From a phage: DNA of 44,179 bases. The notes beneath the pieces were generated by a model. It was given only the letters and a program-made list of their open reading frames with translations, was not told the origin of the DNA and did not search any database. Location of the stretch: NCBI GenBank assembly GCA_032279465.1, contig GCA_032279465.1_4357.1. The stretch is one strand, 5' to 3'. Made by a program: the position numbers and the translations under genes. Positions 3,917 through 41,535 of the stretch are shown here, one piece after another (the first letter of the stretch is position 1; each line of letters opens with the position of its first letter).

Positions 3917-4099
3917 ATGCAGCATTACATGACACAGAATGAAGTGGCTGAACGTATCGGGGTGACCCGTCAAACAATTAATAATTGGTTGCGCAGCGGT
4001 AAATTCCCTGATTGCTGTATTAAGGTTATGGGTCGCCGTTTACCAGGAACATTTGACCGTAATAAAGTTGAAGCATGGATTAAGGAGAACGTGAAATGA
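3917..4099 (+). CDS. Small HTH DNA-binding protein (AlpA/excisionase-like)
   Basis: ORF track 3845..4099; ATG 3917 behind AGGAG; helix-turn-helix segment NEVAERIGVTRQTINNWLRSGKFP. Confidence 0.6.
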   Translation: MQHYMTQNEVAERIGVTRQTINNWLRSGKFPDCCIKVMGRRLPGTFDRNKVEAWIKENVK

Positions 4100-4308
4100 T
4101 TGGGCGTATGGGTTGTTACTTTGAAAACTGTAAAGTTAAATACCGGTTTAAGTTTGCGCCGGAAATTACTGACAGCGGATTCTATGCGGAAATATGTAAG
4201 CCTAATCATTTGTTGGAACCGACACGCATTATTAAGATGCCAATCGAGGCTTTAAGTAAGTGTCGTTTCTACGCTTCGGAGCGTGCGTGGATTGCGGGCG
4301 TTAAGTAA
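4096..4308 (+). CDS. Hypothetical protein
   Basis: 70 aa ORF, ATGA overlap with upstream gene. Confidence 0.4.
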   Translation: MIGRMGCYFENCKVKYRFKFAPEITDSGFYAEICKPNHLLEPTRIIKMPIEALSKCRFYASERAWIAGVK

Positions 4309-4376
4309 AAGAAACCCCAACGCCAGAACGTCGGGGCTAAAGTACAAATCATCAAAGTAAGCATAAGGATTATACA

Positions 4377-4505
4377 ATGACAAAGTTAATAGTTCCACAG
4401 CTACGCCGCCAGAAACACGGCGCTGACTTCTTCGCACCGGTAAAGATGAACCGCGCAATGCGCCGTATGCAGGAAGCCTTAGAACGTGCGGAGAAAAAGA
4501 AATGA
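4377..4505 (+). CDS. Hypothetical small basic protein (42 aa)
   Basis: ATG 4377, stop overlaps primase start (ATGA); below ORF-track cutoff. Confidence 0.3.
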   Translation: MTKLIVPQLRRQKHGADFFAPVKMNRAMRRMQEALERAEKKK

Positions 4506-6754
4506 ATATTGTTTTTGCAACGCTGCGCAACACATTCGATAAAAACCCTGTAGCGCGTGAGATGCCTCTCGAGCAGTTTGTGGAGTATGTCTGCGATACA
4601 TCGAAGCGTTTATCCGTGGATCCGTCGTGGTCTAAGGAAGAGTACGACGCTGCCAAGATTAAGCAGAAAGCTATTGCGCCTGTTGGGGGTCGCCGTAAAA
4701 ACGCTATCCTGGAAGACAGTGTGGTTAAGTTCGATTTTGACCATCTCAACCGTACTCAGTACCGCGACCTTGCCCGCAAATTCAAGAACGCACCGTTCTT
4801 CAATATTCTGCATACAACGGCATCGCATCAGCATGTGTGTAAAAACGGTGATTACGCCTTCCGCGTTCTGGTTCCGGCTCGCACGCCGTTTAACTCTAAC
4901 GACGCGTGGATGGTCCAACGGGCTATTTGTGCAGAGTTAGAAATAGATGAAGCCTTGCGTGACCACTGCACGGAAGACGGCAACCGCCTTATCTATCTGC
5001 CACATAGAGAGTCAAAGATAACGGTTACAGAAGGGCGTGTTATCCGTGCCGAGCGGTACATCAAGAAAGCCGAAGAGATGGGGTTGAGTAAACGTGAAGT
5101 TAAGACACTTGCCGCCGATGAGTATGGGCTTAATGCTGATATAGCGCATTTCTGCGAAGCCGAGCTTGGCCTTGACGCTTTATCTTCCGGGCGCGGGTAC
5201 GAAGTCCCATGCCCTAACGAACATCTGCATACAGGCAAAGGCTCCACAAGCATCATGCTTGATGGTAAAGAAGTGCGCTTTGTGTGCCAGCATACAAACA
5301 ACGGCGCTTGCACCGAGCTTAACCGCCGACAGCATTTGGCCCTGCGTATGTGCGGCCTGCCAGACGAGCTTAACGTAGACAAGCAACCTATCAGTATTAA
5401 CAGCATTCGTGCGGCTCTGCCTGATTTACCGGATGAAGAGATTGAAGAACTGCACCGCACAGAGAACGAGGAGCCTGTAACTTGCACGCTGGAAGACCTT
5501 GAAGAAGAGGACGAGTTACCAGAACCGGTAAAGGCTGATTTCGTCGTTGAGGGGTACATGCCGTCGGATTGTATCTGGGATATTGTCGGGGAATCCGGCA
5601 CGTACAAATCATTCTATACGCTGGGGATGATGTACCTGAGCGCCGCCGGGTACCGGTTTGCGGGGGCTGACACCCAACGTTGCCACCATTTCTATATTGA
5701 CGGCGAGGGTGGTGCGACTACACGAACACGTATTGATGCACTCGCGGCTAAATATGGCGAGGAAGGTAAAGATTATGTACATGTCATCGATATGGGCGAA
5801 ATACTCGCTACGCATGGTGATAAAAAAATTCCAGCTCTAATCCGCAGGATGCGCGAAACCGCAGGGGATGAACCTATTGGCATGGTTGCCTTCGACACCC
5901 TTAACCAGACGCTGGCCCTGACGATTGATAAGTTCGACGAGAACAGTTCATCAACGGCAATCGGTATGGGTAAAGTTATCGCCATCCTGAAAGAAGTGCG
6001 CGATGCAACTAAAGCCGCTGTCGGTGTCGTTCACCATACTCCGAAGGGCGGAAAGAAAGCCCGCGGCAGTGGAGCATTGTATGCGGGTGTCGACGTGGAA
6101 CTTACAATCGAACGCGCTACCGGCCGTCAGATAAACGTATACCACTCTAAATTTAAGCACGGTCCGCAACAGAAGACGGTTGGCATGGTACTGGAGTCTG
6201 TACAGTTCCGTGAAGCACCGCCGCCGAAAGAGTACCGCGCGGTTGAGTTCCTCGGTAGCACAGAGGAATACGGCACAATAGTAAACCTCGACCTGCCTGA
6301 GCCGCACAAGGCGCTTGTATTGATGCCGTGGGGCTTCGAGCCATTCAAGACCGACGAGGAGAAAGAGAGGGAAGAAGGGTTAACTAACGAAGGTAAACAA
6401 AATGTACGTAAAACCATAGAGAACGCCGTCAACAGTTCCGAGGCCACGATACTCGCGGCGTTTGAACTGGCGGAGGGGACCTACAACGGCAACGAAGGCA
6501 TCACAGTCGCCGCGGCGAATAAGCTCGCACAGTCAGACCCCAACGCAAAGGCGTTTAACTCCAAAGAAGCCATAGAACGCGGGAAGATTAAGAAAATGGT
6601 TGAGGCTGGGTATCTTGTCCCGGGTACTGACGAAAACAATCAGATAATCCCAGGCCGTTACAGACTGAACACCATGATAACAGATAACAAGATTCCGAAG
6701 ACAATATACGAGCCGAATGAAATGCTGACAGTGACCGAGGAGGATTTGGAATGA
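4502..6754 (+). CDS. DNA primase/helicase (N-terminal primase-like and zinc-binding region, C-terminal RecA-like ATPase)
   Basis: 750 aa; Walker A GESGTYKS, ...VVHHTPKGGKKARGSGALYAGVDVELTIER typical of RepA/DnaB-like phage helicases; Cys/His cluster CPNEHLH...CQHTNNGAC. Confidence 0.65.
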   Translation: MNIVFATLRNTFDKNPVAREMPLEQFVEYVCDTSKRLSVDPSWSKEEYDAAKIKQKAIAPVGGRRKNAILEDSVVKFDFDHLNRTQYRDLARKFKNAPFFNILHTTASHQHVCKNGDYAFRVLVPARTPFNSNDAWMVQRAICAELEIDEALRDHCTEDGNRLIYLPHRESKITVTEGRVIRAERYIKKAEEMGLSKREVKTLAADEYGLNADIAHFCEAELGLDALSSGRGYEVPCPNEHLHTGKGSTSIMLDGKEVRFVCQHTNNGACTELNRRQHLALRMCGLPDELNVDKQPISINSIRAALPDLPDEEIEELHRTENEEPVTCTLEDLEEEDELPEPVKADFVVEGYMPSDCIWDIVGESGTYKSFYTLGMMYLSAAGYRFAGADTQRCHHFYIDGEGGATTRTRIDALAAKYGEEGKDYVHVIDMGEILATHGDKKIPALIRRMRETAGDEPIGMVAFDTLNQTLALTIDKFDENSSSTAIGMGKVIAILKEVRDATKAAVGVVHHTPKGGKKARGSGALYAGVDVELTIERATGRQINVYHSKFKHGPQQKTVGMVLESVQFREAPPPKEYRAVEFLGSTEEYGTIVNLDLPEPHKALVLMPWGFEPFKTDEEKEREEGLTNEGKQNVRKTIENAVNSSEATILAAFELAEGTYNGNEGITVAAANKLAQSDPNAKAFNSKEAIERGKIKKMVEAGYLVPGTDENNQIIPGRYRLNTMITDNKIPKTIYEPNEMLTVTEEDLE

Positions 6755-33453: not shown

Positions 33454-33512
33454 AATTTACCTCTTAGTAAATGAAAAGAGGGACCGAAGTCCCTCTCGAT
33501 TATAGCTTAACC

Positions 33513-34562
33513 TTAAGCACCGACGCCAGTTACCAGGAAGGCAATCGGCACATGCTTACGTTCAACAACACGGTTCCAGTTGGAGGCGTTCGCCAGGTCC
33601 TGCCAGGAAGCGGAGCGTGCGACAGTCTCTGTGCCGTTACCGGTGATTACTGCGCTGGTGAAGCTGTAGCCCAGTGGGTGCAGCAACCAGGTCTTACGGG
33701 TCCACAGGGTTTCGACGCCACCACCGTTGCCGCGAGACGCTTCGCGTTCGTATTCCAGCGGGTTGGACGGAGAACCTTCACCGTAACCGATAGCGCCGTT
33801 GCCGAAGATGACGGAGATGAACTTGCGGCTCGGGCCAGTGTCAACTACGGTCATGCTGTCGTCAACAATCACGCGGTAGCCCTGGTAGGTGGCGAACATG
33901 GTGTTGTTGTCCGCGTCACGGATGAAGTCGATAAGCTGCTGCTTACGTGCCTGCGCATAAACGAAGCTATGCATCGCGATAGCCCCCAGCACTTCACCGC
34001 CGTTGGCCATCAGAGCATCGCCCATAGTCTGGGTAGCGTCGATGAACGCGCCAGCATCGAAGCCCAGAGTATCAGACACGTCGATAACCATGTCGTTCTT
34101 CTCGTGGTAAGCATCGGTAGCAGCTACGTTGTCGTTGTACAGACCGAGCGCGGTAGCAATCAGACGGCGTTGTGCCTGGCGCTGCCAGAAGTTATCCAGA
34201 CGGGACGCTACGGATTGCAGCGGGTTCTGGCTGGTCAGTTCGACAGTCAAATCCGCCTGACCGAAACCTTCGTTCAGGTATGCAACGCGGGCCATCATCT
34301 CACCGGTCTGCACGTTACGCGGGGTGGCGATGTCCTGGTATACATCGTTCGAGTAGTTAGGCTCGATAGAGGTATCAATCGCTTTCCAGAACGGAATATT
34401 AGCGACGTTGGACGGGCCGCGGGCAATCTCGGCAGCGTACGGGGTCGGGGTCAGAATACCAGACTGGAAGAACGCGGTTTTTTCTACCGGGTCCTCGGTC
34501 ATATAAGACGCCAGGACCGGGATGTTGCCGGTTACGATATCGCCGATAGTGGTAATTGCCAT
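33513..34562 (-). CDS. Major capsid protein
   Basis: 349 aa, preceded by scaffold and followed by decoration-like genes. Confidence 0.7.
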   Translation of the reverse strand: MAITTIGDIVTGNIPVLASYMTEDPVEKTAFFQSGILTPTPYAAEIARGPSNVANIPFWKAIDTSIEPNYSNDVYQDIATPRNVQTGEMMARVAYLNEGFGQADLTVELTSQNPLQSVASRLDNFWQRQAQRRLIATALGLYNDNVAATDAYHEKNDMVIDVSDTLGFDAGAFIDATQTMGDALMANGGEVLGAIAMHSFVYAQARKQQLIDFIRDADNNTMFATYQGYRVIVDDSMTVVDTGPSRKFISVIFGNGAIGYGEGSPSNPLEYEREASRGNGGGVETLWTRKTWLLHPLGYSFTSAVITGNGTETVARSASWQDLANASNWNRVVERKHVPIAFLVTGVGA

Positions 34563-34564
34563 TA

Positions 34565-35266
34565 TTATTTCCTCAGGGCTTTAAGTTGCCGTTCAAATTC
34601 GGCAGGGTTCGATTTATACAGGGCTAAACGCTCTGCTTCACTCATGTCTTTAAACGCTGGTGCGGCCCCGCCGCCTTTGCTACCGGAAGCCCCGCCGCCG
34701 GAAGCTGCATTTGCTTTGATCAAATGCGAAAACGCCTTGTGTTCGCGCAGGTATTTGCGGAACTGTTCCGGGTCAGTCGTGATTACGTTACCGTCTGCGC
34801 CAACAAACTTAGTAACCACATCATCGCCTTCGAACTCAGTCTTAACGAACGGCGCAAGAATGTCCACTGCTTCTGGGGTAATAAAGTCACCCGCGAAAGA
34901 GCCTAGCACCGCTTTACGTTCGCTGCCGAGGATACGCTCTGCCATTCTGGAGATGCGACCGTCTTTCTCGGCTAACACCGGGTCATACTGGCTACGAATC
35001 GTCTTTTCGAACTCATCCATCTTACCAGCGGCTTTTAACGCCTCCTGGTGCGCGCGCTGCCGTTCTTCTTCGGCCTCTTTTGCTTTGCGAGCGGCTTCTT
35101 TCTTCTCCGCCAACAATGCTTCCTGATTAGCCTTAAGCCCGGCAACTTCTTTCTCAATCAGCGCCTGAACTTCTTCAGCGGTGAACATTTTCGGCGCGTC
35201 ACCGCCACCAGCTTTATCTTCTGCCCCAGCTTCTTCCTGGAACGGATAACGTAAAAAACGATTCAT
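34565..35266 (-). CDS. Scaffolding protein
   Basis: ORF track 34565..35320, probable ATG 35266; Ala/Glu/Lys-rich coiled coil immediately upstream of capsid gene. Confidence 0.6.
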   Translation of the reverse strand: MNRFLRYPFQEEAGAEDKAGGGDAPKMFTAEEVQALIEKEVAGLKANQEALLAEKKEAARKAKEAEEERQRAHQEALKAAGKMDEFEKTIRSQYDPVLAEKDGRISRMAERILGSERKAVLGSFAGDFITPEAVDILAPFVKTEFEGDDVVTKFVGADGNVITTDPEQFRKYLREHKAFSHLIKANAASGGGASGSKGGGAAPAFKDMSEAERLALYKSNPAEFERQLKALRK

Positions 35267-35348: not shown

Positions 35349-35612
35349 CTATTCCAGAATATTCCTCACGTAATCCTGCAACATGAACACTTTCAGCCTC
35401 AGTTGCCGTACACATTCGGCGTTCTGAACGTCGATAGCCAAATCCTCATCGGCGTCGCTACTTGGCAGCGCCAGCTTGCACGGCGGCTGCATCATCGTCG
35501 TATCCGGGGATGGAATTGGCGTTGGCGACGGCGCGGGACTTGAACTGCACGCGCTCAGGGTCAAAAGTGCACACGCTGCGACCAGGCGTTCTAATGTACT
35601 TAACGACTTCAC
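35349..35612 (-). CDS. o-spanin (Rz1-like outer-membrane lipoprotein)
   Basis: Signal peptide with lipobox LSAC then Pro-rich SSSPAPSPTPIPSPD; starts inside Rz in another frame and extends past its stop. Confidence 0.55.
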   Translation of the reverse strand: MKSLSTLERLVAACALLTLSACSSSPAPSPTPIPSPDTTMMQPPCKLALPSSDADEDLAIDVQNAECVRQLRLKVFMLQDYVRNILE

Positions 35613-35844
35613 GGGTAATCACCTCTGATTTCGTCTTGCCTTCGTTGTCAGCGGCGGCTGCCTTCGATTCGTCCTGCTGCTGCCGTTGTGTTTTCTTAGC
35701 TAACTCAGCCTGTGCTTTTTGCTGTTGCTGCGAAACGAGATTAGCGCGGCCTTCGTGCCAGCCGCTGCGGTACTGATAAATGCCGTGTGTGTAAGCCTGG
35801 ATGATGAAACATGCTCCTGCTACGACGGTTGCTTTAAGATTCAT
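35458..35844 (-). CDS. i-spanin (Rz-like)
   Basis: 128 aa; N-terminal TM helix, Gln/Ala-rich coiled coil; overlapping Rz1-like ORF. Confidence 0.6.
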   Translation of the reverse strand: MNLKATVVAGACFIIQAYTHGIYQYRSGWHEGRANLVSQQQQKAQAELAKKTQRQQQDESKAAAADNEGKTKSEVITREVVKYIRTPGRSVCTFDPERVQFKSRAVANANSIPGYDDDAAAVQAGAAK

Positions 35845-36455: not shown

Positions 36456-36913
36456 TCTGGCTTAGTTACCTTCGCCGCTTTACTAACAGCCTCTACCCCA
36501 TCGGCATCAGTAACTTTAACGAAGTATTCACCTACCGCATTAACCATCAGAGACAAAGCCTCTTCCGGGGCGTTTACCACTTCCTTACCGTCTTTGTACC
36601 AGGTCAGAGCATACGGTGCTTTACCCGCCTTAACTTCGACAGTGATAGTTGCGCTGCCATCTGTAAGTTCAGTGTCTTTCGGTTGCACAGAGAAATACAC
36701 GTCACCAGCGTCCGCCAGATACGGAATTTCATAAAGCATACCAGCGGCAGAGAGTGCGATACCTGTCTTGTCTGCGTACGGCATCTCGTCTACAGGTATA
36801 CCTAGTACACTTTCATCCTCAACGTAGGTTACGTTCTCACCGGAGCCAGACACCCGAGCGTACTGGACTACGCGACGTGACGGCACATCAGTTACTTTGA
36901 AAAAACCCATCAT
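36452..36913 (-). CDS. Ig-like domain protein (structural)
   Basis: 153 aa; ATITVEVKAGKAPYALTWYKDGKEV Ig-like segment. Confidence 0.45.
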   Translation of the reverse strand: MMGFFKVTDVPSRRVVQYARVSGSGENVTYVEDESVLGIPVDEMPYADKTGIALSAAGMLYEIPYLADAGDVYFSVQPKDTELTDGSATITVEVKAGKAPYALTWYKDGKEVVNAPEEALSLMVNAVGEYFVKVTDADGVEAVSKAAKVTKPE

Positions 36914-37956
36914 TAATCCCCTTTCAGATAATCAGCAACACGTTTATCGAGTTCCGCCATCTGCTTAAGCGTAAGCGGATTCCCGAAACCATCTACAGAT
37001 TTTACGCGAAACTCTTCCGGCGATATACCGCTGTTACGGAAAATCTTACCACGAACAGGACCGAGCGCCTGGTCCTGAAACCATGCTGGTTGTTGTTTCA
37101 GGAACTCGTAATAGGTGGTGTCTGCGCTTACCTGAGTACCGCCGTCCGCACCCTTAGCCGCACGTTTTGCGCCTTTATCAAGGAAGTCGAACTCTGAACT
37201 GATTACCGGTGCAGTGGTACTTCGGCAATTAGGATGGGCTGGTGGCATCGGACCTTTACCGATTTCCCACGTCATTCCGTCTCTGGCCCTGCAAATCGTG
37301 CTGGTACGGCTGTCCAGCGTCGACATCCACTCGTATTTCTCGATGATGTCGTCGTTCTGGCGGTACGTCTCGTTACGTGCTTCGTTGGACACGTGGGACA
37401 GCGCAGTACGGATTACTGTAGCCGCGTATTTCTCCGATACGTCAGCCAGCCCGCCTTTACCGACTACTTCCGTAACAATCTGCCGTGTTGTCTTACCCTG
37501 AACAAAGCCCATCTTAACGCCGGTTACAAGACGTGCTACTTCCGTTTCACCCCAGCCCGACATCAGCTTGGTGAAATCAACGGGCTTGTCGCTCAATGAT
37601 AATGGTTGAAACTCGGCAGCGGCCCATACCTGTTCTGCGGTAGGCGTAACAAATTCCGCGTCTACGTTGGCGGTCAGTGTCTTTACGTTCCACTCAGCCT
37701 CATACGCCGCCAGTTCCTTAAGGTCTTCTGTCAGCTTTGTCTGCCAGTCGCCCGTAAGCCCCACCAGTGCTTCTTCAAGGTCGCGTAACAATTTATTCAG
37801 TCGGGCAGTGCTTCGCCCGTCGTCACCGAATAACAGCACCTGCCGTTTTATTTCGTCCCGCATCTCCTGAATGAACGGTGCTAGGTCTTTCACTTCACCA
37901 GATGCGGTGCGTTGCAGCCAAATCTGGTGGCTGATTAGTGATGTCAGTAAGCTCAT
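36913..37956 (-). CDS. Head morphogenesis protein (SPP1 gp7 / Mu F-like)
   Basis: 347 aa; HPNCRS motif typical of the family; follows portal gene. Confidence 0.65.
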   Translation of the reverse strand: MSLLTSLISHQIWLQRTASGEVKDLAPFIQEMRDEIKRQVLLFGDDGRSTARLNKLLRDLEEALVGLTGDWQTKLTEDLKELAAYEAEWNVKTLTANVDAEFVTPTAEQVWAAAEFQPLSLSDKPVDFTKLMSGWGETEVARLVTGVKMGFVQGKTTRQIVTEVVGKGGLADVSEKYAATVIRTALSHVSNEARNETYRQNDDIIEKYEWMSTLDSRTSTICRARDGMTWEIGKGPMPPAHPNCRSTTAPVISSEFDFLDKGAKRAAKGADGGTQVSADTTYYEFLKQQPAWFQDQALGPVRGKIFRNSGISPEEFRVKSVDGFGNPLTLKQMAELDKRVADYLKGD

Positions 37957-38037
37957 ATACCCTCCTGTTTCGATATGACAATCATATCAGTCGGTAACGT
38001 ATTGGCATAATCATACGCATTTAAGGTTAAAAAGAGC

Positions 38038-38068
38038 TTGATTAAATTCTACATTCAAATGTAGAATT
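38038..38068 (+). promoter_or_regulatory. Promoter of KilA-N gene overlapped by 24-bp perfect palindrome (operator candidate)
   Basis: -35 TTGATT 38038-38043, -10 TAGAAT 38062-38067; palindrome AATTCTACATT-CA-AATGTAGAATT at 38045-38068. Confidence 0.5.
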
Positions 38069-38098
38069 TAAACGTACACTTAAACAGGAGAAATACAC

Positions 38099-38752
38099 AT
38101 GAAACTGCAAACATTAGAGTTCCCTTATGGAGAAATCACTTTTGACCGTGAAAACTTTATTAACGTAAACGAGCTGGTTGACCAGATGAACCGTTGGCGT
38201 TTAGACAACGGCATGGGGGCCAGAGAGCTTCGCCAGGTCATGGCAACGGATGGCTTCAAGATTTTCAAGGAGGAATGCGAAAAACAACTCGGAATCGAGA
38301 ATGCCATAAGGGCGACGAAAGGCCGAAACGGTCGCACCTTTGCATGTCTCCATCTGGCAGTATATATTGCGGAGCAATACAGCGCCTATTTCCATTTCCT
38401 CGTTATCGACCGCTTTATCACACAACGGCAGGTAGAACTACGAAACATTGGCGCGGTGAGCTTTGTCGAGCTTAACGCTGCCGTTAGTCGAATGATCGAG
38501 CGCACGGAGGGAAGAATTGGCCACAGTGGACACTTCATACAGGTGGCTAAAGCGGTAAAGGAATCCGTAGATATCCGCGACGTAACGGGTTTCGATACAT
38601 GGGACTCTCAGGATGCGAAGACCAATCAGTTGCGAAGTGACATCCAGAAAGCTCTGGTGACGCTTCTTGACATGGAGGCCGTTAATACATGGGGTGAACT
38701 GAAAGAGGCGATACCTCGGGTTGTGCGTAAATGTGCGGCTAATATACGTTAA
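38099..38752 (+). CDS. KilA-N domain protein (moron)
   Basis: 217 aa; GRNGRTFACLHLAVYIAEQYSAYFHFLVIDRF resembles KilA-N core; own promoter and terminator; opposite orientation to late genes. Confidence 0.5.
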   Translation: MKLQTLEFPYGEITFDRENFINVNELVDQMNRWRLDNGMGARELRQVMATDGFKIFKEECEKQLGIENAIRATKGRNGRTFACLHLAVYIAEQYSAYFHFLVIDRFITQRQVELRNIGAVSFVELNAAVSRMIERTEGRIGHSGHFIQVAKAVKESVDIRDVTGFDTWDSQDAKTNQLRSDIQKALVTLLDMEAVNTWGELKEAIPRVVRKCAANIR

Positions 38753-38756
38753 AACT

Positions 38757-38783
38757 AAGGCCCCTAGCGGGGCCTTTCTATTT
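38757..38783. terminator. Bidirectional Rho-independent terminator
   Basis: Stem AGGCCCC/GGGGCCT with loop TAGC, then TTCTATTT; between KilA-N and convergent portal gene. Confidence 0.6.
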
Positions 38784-40251
38784 ACTCCTGTTGTTGCGCG
38801 GACTGCGGAATTTCTCCTGCTACCTGAGCAACCGCACCCAACGGCAGCGGTGCGTCCCCAATAGCGTTCTGAATGTCCCCATCGGTCCAGTCGGTTACGC
38901 CAGCCTTACGCAACGCGGCGTAGTAAGCAGTAGCTGGTAGCAGGCCTGCGTTAATGTCCGCCATCCACTGAGCGCGGTCCTGAGCTGTCATAGGTTGCAG
39001 GAAGAATTCCATATTCAGCTTGAACTCAATCTCAGTATCTTCACTAAGCCCAAGCATACCCGCTACCCAGCGCAATGCATCGGTATACGCCATACTTACG
39101 TTACGTGCGATTGTCGCCATAACAGACGTATCCGCGCCACGTTGCAGGCGGGCGGATTCGGCGGTGATTTGCTGCGTCGGGGTGATAAGCTGCGCACCAA
39201 TCTGAATGGCCTGATTCTCTTTATCCAGCATATTCTGTTTGGCGAGGTTGTTCTCTCCTGCCTGAACAAGAAATGCATTGCCGCCGTAACCGATGTTATG
39301 GCCCGAACGCGACCCCATGCGCACGCCGTGAGGGTTGGCTTCTTTCCACTGTTCCATGCTCATGTTCTCGCCAGGGGCGATGAACAGAGTAGGCTGGCCT
39401 ACAACGAAGCTGGATTCCTCGTTGTCCGCGCTGTTGCGGAAATGCCCGATATTAAGCTCAGCTAACGGTAGCAAAGGTGCATCATCAATGGTCGCATCGT
39501 TGTTGCTTGCCCCAATGAACGTGAACGGGATTTTGCCCCGTAACTGTTCGCCAAGTTCCGGGAATATTTCGATTACATCATCCTGAGCGCCACCTTCGGC
39601 ATCGAAGCGATAGATTCGCTGGCGGTAGCGCCCGTCAATCAAATCGAGAACGCGGTATTGTTCACCGAACTTTGTTTCGAACTCTGCACTTGGTTCTGAG
39701 TATTCCCACACCTCACGTAACACGACCATCGTCACACGGTTCACTGAGCCGATGCGGGTCAGTCGCCAGTTGATGATGTTCTCAGCAGTGTAGAATGCAA
39801 TGACCGGGTTTAGTAACCCCGCGTTCTGTTCGGCTGCCGTTGCCGCGGCTGTCTCCGGGGCGTCCACCAGCAACCCGCCACGACCCACCGAATCAATCTC
39901 CATTAGCGTATCCTGTGCGTGCTGCCACAGCCCGACACCAGAACCGTCCGCGTTACGTAACAGGTACTCCAGTTCAGGCGGTATAATCTGCTCGGGGTCT
40001 TTGCGCATGACACTGCCGACCATCCCCGCCAGCGTTCTCTTGGTGAAGTTGTAACAGATAGCGCCGTTCTCGTATTCTTCCTGGCGCTGTGCCGCGTAGG
40101 TCGGGTCCGGCTCATTCTTCCCAACGTTGCGCAGATAGCGGATAAGGTCGCCTTCCAGCGCGTGGCGCACCTTCTGCCATTTATCGAAGTGGTGCAGCCA
40201 TTCCCGGTGTTTTGTCTTAACACCCTGATTCTGACCGTTCATAGTTAACAT
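38782..40251 (-). CDS. Portal protein
   Basis: 489 aa directly downstream of large terminase. Confidence 0.7.
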   Translation of the reverse strand: MLTMNGQNQGVKTKHREWLHHFDKWQKVRHALEGDLIRYLRNVGKNEPDPTYAAQRQEEYENGAICYNFTKRTLAGMVGSVMRKDPEQIIPPELEYLLRNADGSGVGLWQHAQDTLMEIDSVGRGGLLVDAPETAAATAAEQNAGLLNPVIAFYTAENIINWRLTRIGSVNRVTMVVLREVWEYSEPSAEFETKFGEQYRVLDLIDGRYRQRIYRFDAEGGAQDDVIEIFPELGEQLRGKIPFTFIGASNNDATIDDAPLLPLAELNIGHFRNSADNEESSFVVGQPTLFIAPGENMSMEQWKEANPHGVRMGSRSGHNIGYGGNAFLVQAGENNLAKQNMLDKENQAIQIGAQLITPTQQITAESARLQRGADTSVMATIARNVSMAYTDALRWVAGMLGLSEDTEIEFKLNMEFFLQPMTAQDRAQWMADINAGLLPATAYYAALRKAGVTDWTDGDIQNAIGDAPLPLGAVAQVAGEIPQSAQQQE

Positions 40252-40263
40252 TGAATAATCCTC

Positions 40264-41535
40264 TTAAAGTGCGAAAGTCACCGGGACATTAATAACTGGT
40301 TTGCGAATCGGCATTTCATACGCGATAGGATATGTGGTCCCGTCGTTCTGGTGGTCCACACCACCCGATTTATCCGGTTCGCCGTTCTTGTCGTAAGCCT
40401 GTTGCTCCAGGCATCGCGCGGTAACCGGGCAAGCCTGCTCATTAATCATGACCATACCAGATTCAAGCGCCTTATTCATCGCCGCTACGCGGTCTTTAAC
40501 CGGTGGGTTTGTCGATTTAGCGCGCACTTCGAAGCCGGCCTGCTGTAACTGGGCAATATCAGATGTGCTGGCGTTGTTACTTTTACGGTTTTTACCGCTT
40601 GCGTCGGGGTACATAACGATATAGTGGCCCTTACTTTTCCAGCGCTCTGTTACGGCTCTCACCACATCGGGCGTATCGAACATATCCACCAACTCGGCGA
40701 CTGCATGCCAGACTTTGCCACGTTGCACGTAAACTGTACTAGCCATGTGGCCTACGTTAAAGTCCTGCCCGATATACAGAGTCTCGCCTGGTTTTATTGT
40801 TTCGCGGCTGCTGTTTTTCCTGCGGTCATAGGCGTAATAGACAGTCCCCGCCGTCAGGTTGACGAACTCGCCGTTGATGTAGGCGTCAATCAACTGACCT
40901 GGGTATGTGTCGCGTAACGACTGCACATAATCTTCTGGCAGGAACGGGTTAGACAGGGTGGACGCCTGAATCATCTCGTAGCCTGGATTCTTTTTGACTA
41001 CCCAGCGGTCATGTACGAAACGGAATCCTTCCGGGGTAGTGAACACGGAAACGGTATTAGCAGGTTTCGGTGTAATAGGTTTATATGTCCGCGGCAACTG
41101 GCGGTTACGGGCGATGACTTTGTTCCACGCGTGCTCGGCGTGCTCCATGTTAAGGGTGTCCAACTCGTCGATTTTCGCACGAAACGATTCGTAGCCAACG
41201 ATTCGTGCTGGATTATCAAGTGTACGCAGAACAAAATCCCCAAATTGTCCGGAAGACGTATAGATTATGTTGTCAGACTTGTTGTATTTGTACCGGATAC
41301 CCCAGTCGGTGAGCTTTTCTTCCATACGCGGTGCAAGGATGAGGCGCACCAGGTCATAGGTCGGCTCATACATGGCGATGATAGAATCGCTACCACCTTC
41401 CATGCTGTCGAGTAGTGCAGAGTTGCACATAACTTCGGATTTACCCGTACCGAAGCCAGCTACGAATGCCGGAAACTTGCAATGCATACCGAGAAACGCG
41501 CCTTGCGGCTCCGTTGCCGTGATATTAACGTTCAC
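40264..41535 (-). CDS. Terminase large subunit
   Basis: 423 aa; Walker A AGFGTGKS near N-terminus; upstream of portal. Confidence 0.8.
   Translation of the reverse strand: MNVNITATEPQGAFLGMHCKFPAFVAGFGTGKSEVMCNSALLDSMEGGSDSIIAMYEPTYDLVRLILAPRMEEKLTDWGIRYKYNKSDNIIYTSSGQFGDFVLRTLDNPARIVGYESFRAKIDELDTLNMEHAEHAWNKVIARNRQLPRTYKPITPKPANTVSVFTTPEGFRFVHDRWVVKKNPGYEMIQASTLSNPFLPEDYVQSLRDTYPGQLIDAYINGEFVNLTAGTVYYAYDRRKNSSRETIKPGETLYIGQDFNVGHMASTVYVQRGKVWHAVAELVDMFDTPDVVRAVTERWKSKGHYIVMYPDASGKNRKSNNASTSDIAQLQQAGFEVRAKSTNPPVKDRVAAMNKALESGMVMINEQACPVTARCLEQQAYDKNGEPDKSGGVDHQNDGTTYPIAYEMPIRKPVINVPVTFAL

Follow-up and report, generated by a model that had tools for sequence, protein, structure and literature searches.

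A KilA-N gene cassette with a perfect palindrome over its own promoter in a Jersey-like phage: a candidate autoregulated moron

Phages and large DNA viruses very often encode KilA-N proteins, and to our knowledge almost none of these proteins has a known DNA target. One such gene lies in a 44,179-nt phage contig (GCA_032279465.1_4357.1 of the GenBank assembly GCA_032279465.1; the whole stretch is hereafter called the window), which belongs to a virulent, Jersey-like siphovirus of the Guernseyvirinae. Escherichia phage EcoPhCCP1 is its best match, with 97.8% identity across 37900-38850. The gene encodes 217 aa from an ATG start within an 825-bp unit between the portal and head-morphogenesis genes. 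A first-pass annotation, made from the letters alone, had described this unit as a KilA-N moron whose promoter is covered by a palindrome and which may be autoregulated. The comparative analysis reported here leads to a similar view, in which the protein probably shuts off its own promoter through a 30-bp palindrome.

The cassette and its palindrome

The cassette gene is oriented opposite to both flanking genes of the surrounding late operon, as had been stated, and the promoter previously ascribed to it was recovered as a consensus match (TTGATT-18-TAGAAT; Table 1). An A-tract at 38029-38033 precedes the -35 element, and a promoter is annotated at the equivalent position in phage Jersey. The perfect palindrome reported earlier, AATTCTACATT-CA-AATGTAGAATT at 38045-38068, is real and was correctly placed over the spacer and the -10, but its length is 30 bp instead of 24 bp, since the full repeat (TTAAATTCTACATT CA AATGTAGAATTTAA) has perfect 14-nt arms around a 2-nt centre. 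The dyad therefore includes the final two bases of the -35, the spacer, and the -10, a position that suits the action of a repressor.

The best arm never exceeded 10 nt in 2000 shuffles of the upstream region, versus the 14 nt observed. The palindrome is single-copy in the window even with 3 mismatches allowed (0 matches in 100 shuffles), and its half-sites show no enrichment elsewhere in the window beyond chance. In IMG/VR, the exact dyads of types A and B (defined below) occur only at the promoter of this gene, once per genome; no orphan operators were found in other viral contigs of this collection, and no operator copies were found in 5,426 E. coli genomes.

A symmetric sequence may also act through its structure. 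As a DNA cruciform or an RNA hairpin, it might, for instance, block late transcripts running leftward across the cassette or direct their processing. The palindrome indeed folds into a stable hairpin as single-stranded DNA (-9.8 kcal/mol, z = -6.6), its sequence varies by type with the symmetry retained, and its centre flips repeatedly between CA and TG, as intrastrand pairing of the arms would lead one to expect. However, the stem is A+T-rich with no adjacent T-run on either strand and is therefore not terminator-like in either direction, and type D phages lack the hairpin with the same gene order. Moreover, distant homologues outside late operons also have a palindrome over the -10, and Rfam gave no match near the gathering threshold over the palindrome or the terminator. 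A purely structural role is thus considered very unlikely.

The flips themselves were seen on comparing the 2-nt centre (38056-38057 in the window) among near-identical phages (loci L002, L003, L037, L049, and L050). It reads CA in the window and in phage ER10, TG in EcoPhCCP1 and SE479, and TA in L037. CA and TG are reverse complements, and the changes look like repeated inversion of the hairpin loop via within-strand pairing or template switching.

At the other end of the unit, the convergent cassette and portal genes share a G+C-rich hairpin, AAGGCCCC-TAGC-GGGGCCTT, followed by TCTATTT on the + strand. This hairpin had been called a bidirectional terminator, a description that is half supported: the + strand is terminator-like, and the - strand tail (AGTTTTAA) has 4 T only and was unflagged by the terminator scan. 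An equivalent hairpin lies downstream of each copy in phages that carry two cassettes. The divergent promoter-like site listed in Table 1 faces the head-morphogenesis gene, so a promoter of their own may serve the late genes downstream of the cassette, which would then not require read-through.

Table 1. Features of the cassette and its surroundings in the window
Feature	Position	Strand	Basis or remark
Head-morphogenesis gene, flanking	36913-37956	-	Context
Divergent promoter-like site, extended -10 (TG-n-TATGAT), upstream of head-morphogenesis gene	37981-38008	-	Consensus scan; CTGATATGATTGT core kept in Jersey
Putative sigma-70-type promoter: -35 TTGATT (38038-38043), 18-nt spacer, -10 TAGAAT (38062-38067)	38038-38067	+	Consensus scan
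Perfect inverted repeat 14+2+14, proposed operator (type A) over spacer and -10	38042-38071		Inverted-repeat search, shuffles, folding
Ribosome-binding site AGGAG, 8 nt before ATG	38086-38090	+	Sequence; kept in relatives
Coding sequence, KilA-N/APSES N-terminal domain and helical C-terminal domain	38099-38752	+	Database names 'amidase' (PHROG 6095) or 'hypothetical protein'
Hypervariable segment, codons 38-83 (helix A, helix B, and wing of the winged helix)	38210-38347	+	Alignment; variant matches operator type
Codons 96-217, linker helices and four-helix bundle, near-invariant across variants	38384-38749	+	Alignment, nonsynonymous divergence (dN), model
G+C-rich hairpin common to the convergent cassette and portal genes	38757-38776		Terminator-like on +; weaker T-tail on -
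Portal gene, flanking	38782-40251	-	Context

Identity and predicted fold of the protein

The KilA-N identity proposed by the first-pass annotation is confirmed at the family and fold level, because the relatives of the protein match PF04383 and the predicted fold agrees with them; the score of the single sequence is not the basis. Searched alone, the window protein falls below the Pfam gathering score for KilA-N (PF04383), scoring 20.4 bits where 23.8 are required (E = 4.6e-4; the match covers positions 10-100 of the 107-position profile). A family profile built from 15 close relatives was searched against 1.84 billion representative proteins and retrieved 139 clusters, mostly full-length proteins of about 200-230 aa, and the names borne by distant family members were uninformative. 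PF04383 is matched at E <= 0.01 by 36 of the 48 aligned full-length family members (best E = 7e-18), and the family member P0042, which matches the query profile with E = 7.5e-23, carries this domain. In a Foldseek search of viral models (BFVD), the matches were viral KilA-N proteins and poxvirus N1R/p28 proteins.

The AlphaFold2 model reached a pLDDT of 90 from the deeper alignment versus 71 from a shallow one. It predicts an APSES-type fold in the N-terminal half, namely a beta-hairpin and a three-helix winged helix (wHTH) with its wing, followed by helix 4 and linker helices and then by a four-helix bundle, in which a short, low-confidence helix is predicted between the bundle helices. The C-terminal bundle corresponds to no Pfam family.

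Public records carry another name for this gene. The window protein matches PHROG 6095 with E = 9e-121, a group labelled 'amidase' (category lysis), and the label has been copied to RefSeq (NC_021777 gp05) and to hundreds of phage records. The gene would accordingly encode a peptidoglycan amidase for lysis, and this function is supported by the strength of the PHROG match and the number of records that repeat the label. In contrast, no amidase, CHAP, or lysozyme family in Pfam matches the window protein at E <= 1, an NCBIfam scan returned zero matches, the best structural matches are DNA-binding proteins, and the original GenBank record of Jersey lists the same gene as a hypothetical protein. 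With no catalytic-domain match in Pfam or NCBIfam and a predicted fold that combines a non-enzymatic wHTH with a helical bundle, the amidase function was rejected, and its chance of being correct is considered negligible. The 'amidase' or lysis label is thus unsupported on hundreds of Salmonella and E. coli phage genomes, therapeutic candidates included, and "KilA-N domain DNA-binding protein" is proposed as the name for the family.

For the whole predicted fold, the best match is Deinococcus DdrC (PDB 7qvb / 7udi), a dimeric DNA-binding protein. The model of the window protein shows the two-domain topology of DdrC, with a hairpin and wHTH, a linker, and a four-helix bundle. No detectable sequence similarity accompanies the match: with the family profile as query, DdrC was absent from the PDB sequences reported at E up to 10. 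DdrC is a chromosomal protein induced by damage; it binds DNA at nicks and breaks and has a compacting activity, and its bundle holds the homodimer together (PMC9303277). It was described without homologues in two papers (one of them PMC9303277), neither of which mentions KilA-N or phages. By analogy with the domain-swapped homodimer of DdrC, the window protein may also form a dimer, and codons 96-217 would probably encode a DdrC-like dimerisation and effector domain. The whole-chain structural match supplies the first candidate relative for a DNA-repair protein that has been regarded as Deinococcus-only.

Operator types and the case for autoregulation

In the alignment of Guernseyvirinae proteins, residues 84-217 are almost invariant and residues 38-83 are hypervariable. 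The nonsynonymous divergence amounts to 0.15-0.6 in codons 38-83 versus 0.03-0.06 in the C-terminal half, and since synonymous sites are often saturated in these comparisons, the low dN of the C-terminal half indicates strong purifying selection and not just recent exchange. In the APSES-DNA complex of PCG2, helix A, helix B, and the wing are the DNA-contacting elements (PMC4333399); mapped by homology on this complex through an alignment with Mbp1, the variable residues appear to fall in exactly these elements.

The promoter region varies together with this segment. Four operator variants pair one-to-one with four variants of residues 38-83 in about 33 loci, and the AG11 clade is the sole exception. 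Type A, to which the window belongs, has the dyad AAATTCTACATT-N2-AATGTAGAATTT and the segment motif G[AT]RE[LI]RQVMAT; type B has the dyad AAATGGTATAT-N4-ATATACCATTT and the motif GFKHLRQLMTT; type C has the dyad GAATACTA-N10/11-TAGTATTC and the motif G[VE]KNLSQLLST; and type D has AAATTAGGAATATAATTT in its promoter and the motif LQPRNLAQILKT. Between the window (A) and phage FSL SP-101 (B), the 5' untranslated region (UTR) and codons 1-37 share 86-100% identity in 30-column steps of the alignment, and the operator and codons 38-90, which lie on either side, have diverged. The pairwise distances of the operator, of the UTR with codons 1-37, and of codons 38-83 correlate at 0.76-0.86, and the C-terminal half is uncoupled from this block (0.09-0.19).

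The pairing is also preserved in phages with double cassettes. In TUMS_E15 (C+B) and S120 (C+D), each gene stands behind its own operator type and has its own terminator. The two copies are arranged in tandem (L064 1824-3512 in TUMS_E15 and L065 1847-3535 in S120), with an open reading frame (ORF) of ~49 aa between them that resembles the portal C-terminus and has the appearance of a relic left when phages recombined unequally.

Distant homologues with 22-31% identity, mostly solo genes in metagenomic contigs, have palindromes that are unrelated in sequence to that of the window. By shuffling, 5 of the 10 upstream regions tested reach p <= 0.05. The layout of the window, in which a dyad overlaps the core promoter of its own gene, recurs in the first gene of L051 (TTGACT-17-TATAAT, dyad over the spacer and -10), in L055 (palindrome 15+1+15 over the spacer and -10), and in L056 (TTTACT-17-TATAAT, palindrome 12+5+12 over the spacer and -10). 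The palindrome lies next to the promoter in the second gene of L051 (21+4+21) and in L059. The two L051 genes (4001-4651 and 5703-6356) are distant paralogues ~1 kb apart on one metagenomic contig, each with a different long upstream palindrome. In L058, no single long palindrome is present; a 6+8+6 dyad (TTTGTA-N8-TACAAA-like) occurs there twice in direct orientation ~110 nt upstream of position 588, and the two copies may be two operators.

A DNA-binding protein whose sole recognisable site lies over its own -10 would most simply be a negative autoregulator. In the model that we infer for how the protein binds, dimerises, and represses, for its early expression, and for its sensitivity to dose, the cassette would be a self-contained set of promoter, operator, gene, and terminator. 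Host RNA polymerase would initiate at the sigma-70 promoter, and the product would be a two-domain DNA-binding protein, probably a dimer, with the predicted N-terminal KilA-N/APSES winged helix and the C-terminal helical bundle. As the protein accumulates, the dimer would occupy the 30-bp dyad over the spacer and -10 and stop further initiation, and this negative autoregulation would hold the protein at a low, fixed dose. Recognition would be variant-specific, with helix A, helix B, and the wing (aa 38-83) changing together with the dyad in at least four types, and the near-invariant C-terminal half would presumably bear the effector function. Tight autorepression of this kind, together with the precedent of P1 KilA, suggests that the cassette protein may be dose-sensitive and possibly harmful. 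The first-pass annotation had suggested, with reserve, that the protein is toxic to the host or takes part in host takeover or exclusion.

That the protein shuts off its own promoter through the palindrome is considered moderately probable. The earlier reading of an autoregulated accessory gene has gained comparative support from the co-variation, the cognate double cassettes, and the same architecture in distant homologues.

Several observations weigh against autoregulation through the palindrome. The correlation of the operator with codons 38-83 (0.79) is no higher than its correlation with the intervening segment (0.86), and since the operator, UTR, and N-terminal codons are co-inherited as a block, linkage alone could yield the pairing. 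The group with the most records, type D, shows nothing beyond a 6+6+6 dyad that is not significant (p = 0.37), and the type C dyad is marginal (p = 0.05). In 39 records (AG11, SB3, ER, and SE479 phages), a B-type protein stands behind a distal B promoter-operator and a perfect proximal A palindrome, and the presence of both A and B operators before a B-type protein in this clade is not predicted by a strict cognate model. Three distant homologues have no palindrome upstream; in the Vibrio phage homologue L038, no palindrome is significant. Furthermore, the analogy with DdrC does not in itself demonstrate sequence-specific binding, because DdrC has an acidic wHTH and binds DNA mainly through another surface (PMC9303277).

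The arrangement in the AG11 clade was seen in AG11 itself (L004 2340-2500) and also in L039, L049, and L050. Two tandem promoter modules of ~60 bp precede the B-type gene, the distal one with the B dyad and TTGACA, and the proximal one with the perfect A dyad and a -35 weakened to TCGGTT or TTGGTT.

The same block inheritance could also mean that the palindrome is the operator of a different phage or host regulator, with the KilA-N gene as a mere repressed target and the match of its N-terminal segment as a product of linkage; the AG11 clade, where a B-type protein lies beside an A palindrome, would fit this explanation too. However, the site is unique in the genome, and such a regulator would therefore control one accessory gene only. 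In addition, the dyad differs among phages with about 80-98% identity elsewhere, always together with the recognition segment of the protein; unrelated genomes with distant homologues contain separate palindromes at the equivalent position; and the double cassettes retain cognate pairs. Control by a foreign regulator is unlikely on these grounds, and repression by the KilA-N protein itself remains the preferred explanation.

The cassette as a moron and its likeness to known systems

The cassette gene was found in 342 phage records; wherever its position was examined, the same two genes flank it. A portal protein at least 60% identical to that of the window occurs in 493 records, 91 of them at 95-99%; those sampled at 95-99% are E. 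coli Kagunaviruses, and only 3 Escherichia phage records hold the cassette gene. In the Kagunavirus vB_VIPECOTH07, whose portal is 98% identical, a 69-nt gap that contains only a small hairpin separates the portal gene from the head-morphogenesis gene, and in Klebsiella phage VLCpiS11a the two genes overlap; the cassette is missing from both. Jersey-type Salmonella phages carry it, as do a few E. coli phages, and most of the closest relatives of the window phage lack it. A scan of metagenomes added 3 further close loci only.

Considering that close relatives with adjacent flanking genes lack the cassette, it is a dispensable presence/absence unit with its own putative promoter and terminator, i.e., a moron. 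The earlier use of this term thus agrees with the two cassette-free phages and with the consensus matches for promoter and terminator. The opposite view, that the gene is a conserved core gene of the subfamily and hence no moron, was dropped once the portal search showed close relatives without it. As in morons in the sense of Juhala and Hendrix, an autonomous promoter-gene-terminator unit is inserted in opposite orientation between genes that are adjacent in close relatives; unlike them, the cassette is fixed across Jerseyvirus-type phages and at times occurs in two tandem copies.

Further observations were made around the insertion site. The hairpin between the portal and head-morphogenesis genes of vB_VIPECOTH07 (L062 2756-2824) is G+C-rich and reads AGCCCCGAAAGGGGCT followed by TTCTT. 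Jersey carries an HNH homing-endonuclease gene between its portal and large-terminase genes (L001 5508-6887), and the same two genes are 12 nt apart in the window (40251-40264). Within the head-gene cluster, the decoration and scaffold genes are separated by a spanin pair of the Rz/Rz1 type in which a lipoprotein ORF is embedded (35349-35844, - strand); the annotation of Jersey shows the same arrangement. A mechanical ORF of 551 aa (33471-35126, + strand) runs antisense to the capsid and scaffold genes and is probably no gene.

The specificity types and the stacked copies hint at a role in competition between related phages, for which BstA offers a model. BstA is a prophage-encoded abortive-infection protein of ~307 aa, and its aba element has direct terminal repeats and overlaps the coding start (Owen et al. 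2021, PMC8585504). The two systems share a KilA-N or KilA-N-like N-terminal domain joined to a second domain, and a short, variant-specific cognate element at the 5' end of their own locus (PMC8585504). They differ in that the element of the window is an inverted repeat over a promoter and the gene belongs to a virulent phage.

In a conflict system of this kind, the protein would interfere with the DNA of co-infecting relatives, the cognate palindrome would be a cis-acting self-immunity element, and the diversification of types and the stacking of cassettes and operators would reflect phage-phage competition. Such a role is in keeping with the four specificity types, the fast-changing recognition segment versus the invariant effector half, the double-cassette phages of two types, and the clade with both A and B palindromes. 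On the other hand, PADLOC run on the 48 family members reported no BstA models, only PDC-S22 (16 members) and one AbiEi match, the host phage is virulent and no prophage, no orphan palindromes were found in the viral contigs of IMG/VR, and the exact position of the palindrome over the spacer and -10 is explained by simple autorepression. A BstA/aba-like function is accordingly regarded as improbable. A more specific proposal holds that the C-terminal domain acts against incoming or co-replicating DNA, with the KilA-N segment and palindrome serving self-recognition and the stacked combinations (C+B, C+D, and B+A) following from it, and adds as a corollary that the 'orphan' DdrC of Deinococcus would be a domesticated member of the phage family with KilA-N and four-helix bundle. 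Taken jointly, the proposal and its corollary have only a small chance of being right.

As an element, an autoregulated accessory DNA-binding gene is of an ordinary kind, and the features worth recording are the widespread misannotation, the natural operator and recognition types, and the whole-chain resemblance to DdrC. The four natural protein-operator pairs, together with the unrelated pairs of distant homologues, constitute a system for learning how a KilA-N protein of bacterial viruses reads DNA. The literature searched here gave no palindromic operator over its own promoter for any KilA-N protein, and nothing on autoregulated KilA-N proteins or on KilA-N in Jerseyvirus.

Compared with the known KilA-N/APSES proteins (PF04383; phage P1 KilA, poxvirus N1R/p28, and fungal Mbp1/Swi4/Bqt4), the window protein differs in its sub-threshold Pfam score and its C-terminal four-helix bundle. 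From DdrC it differs in that the latter is damage-induced and chromosomal, has an acidic wHTH, and shows no detectable sequence similarity to it. The lambdoid CI/Cro immunity modules differ as well, since the window protein has a KilA-N fold and no lambda-type HTH, and the cassette has a single operator and no lysogeny module and resides in a virulent phage. The cassette shares with these modules a dyad site that overlaps the spacer and -10 in the promoter of the regulator gene itself, and its recognition segment and operator appear, as in these modules, to diversify together, with independent recombination of the rest of the protein.

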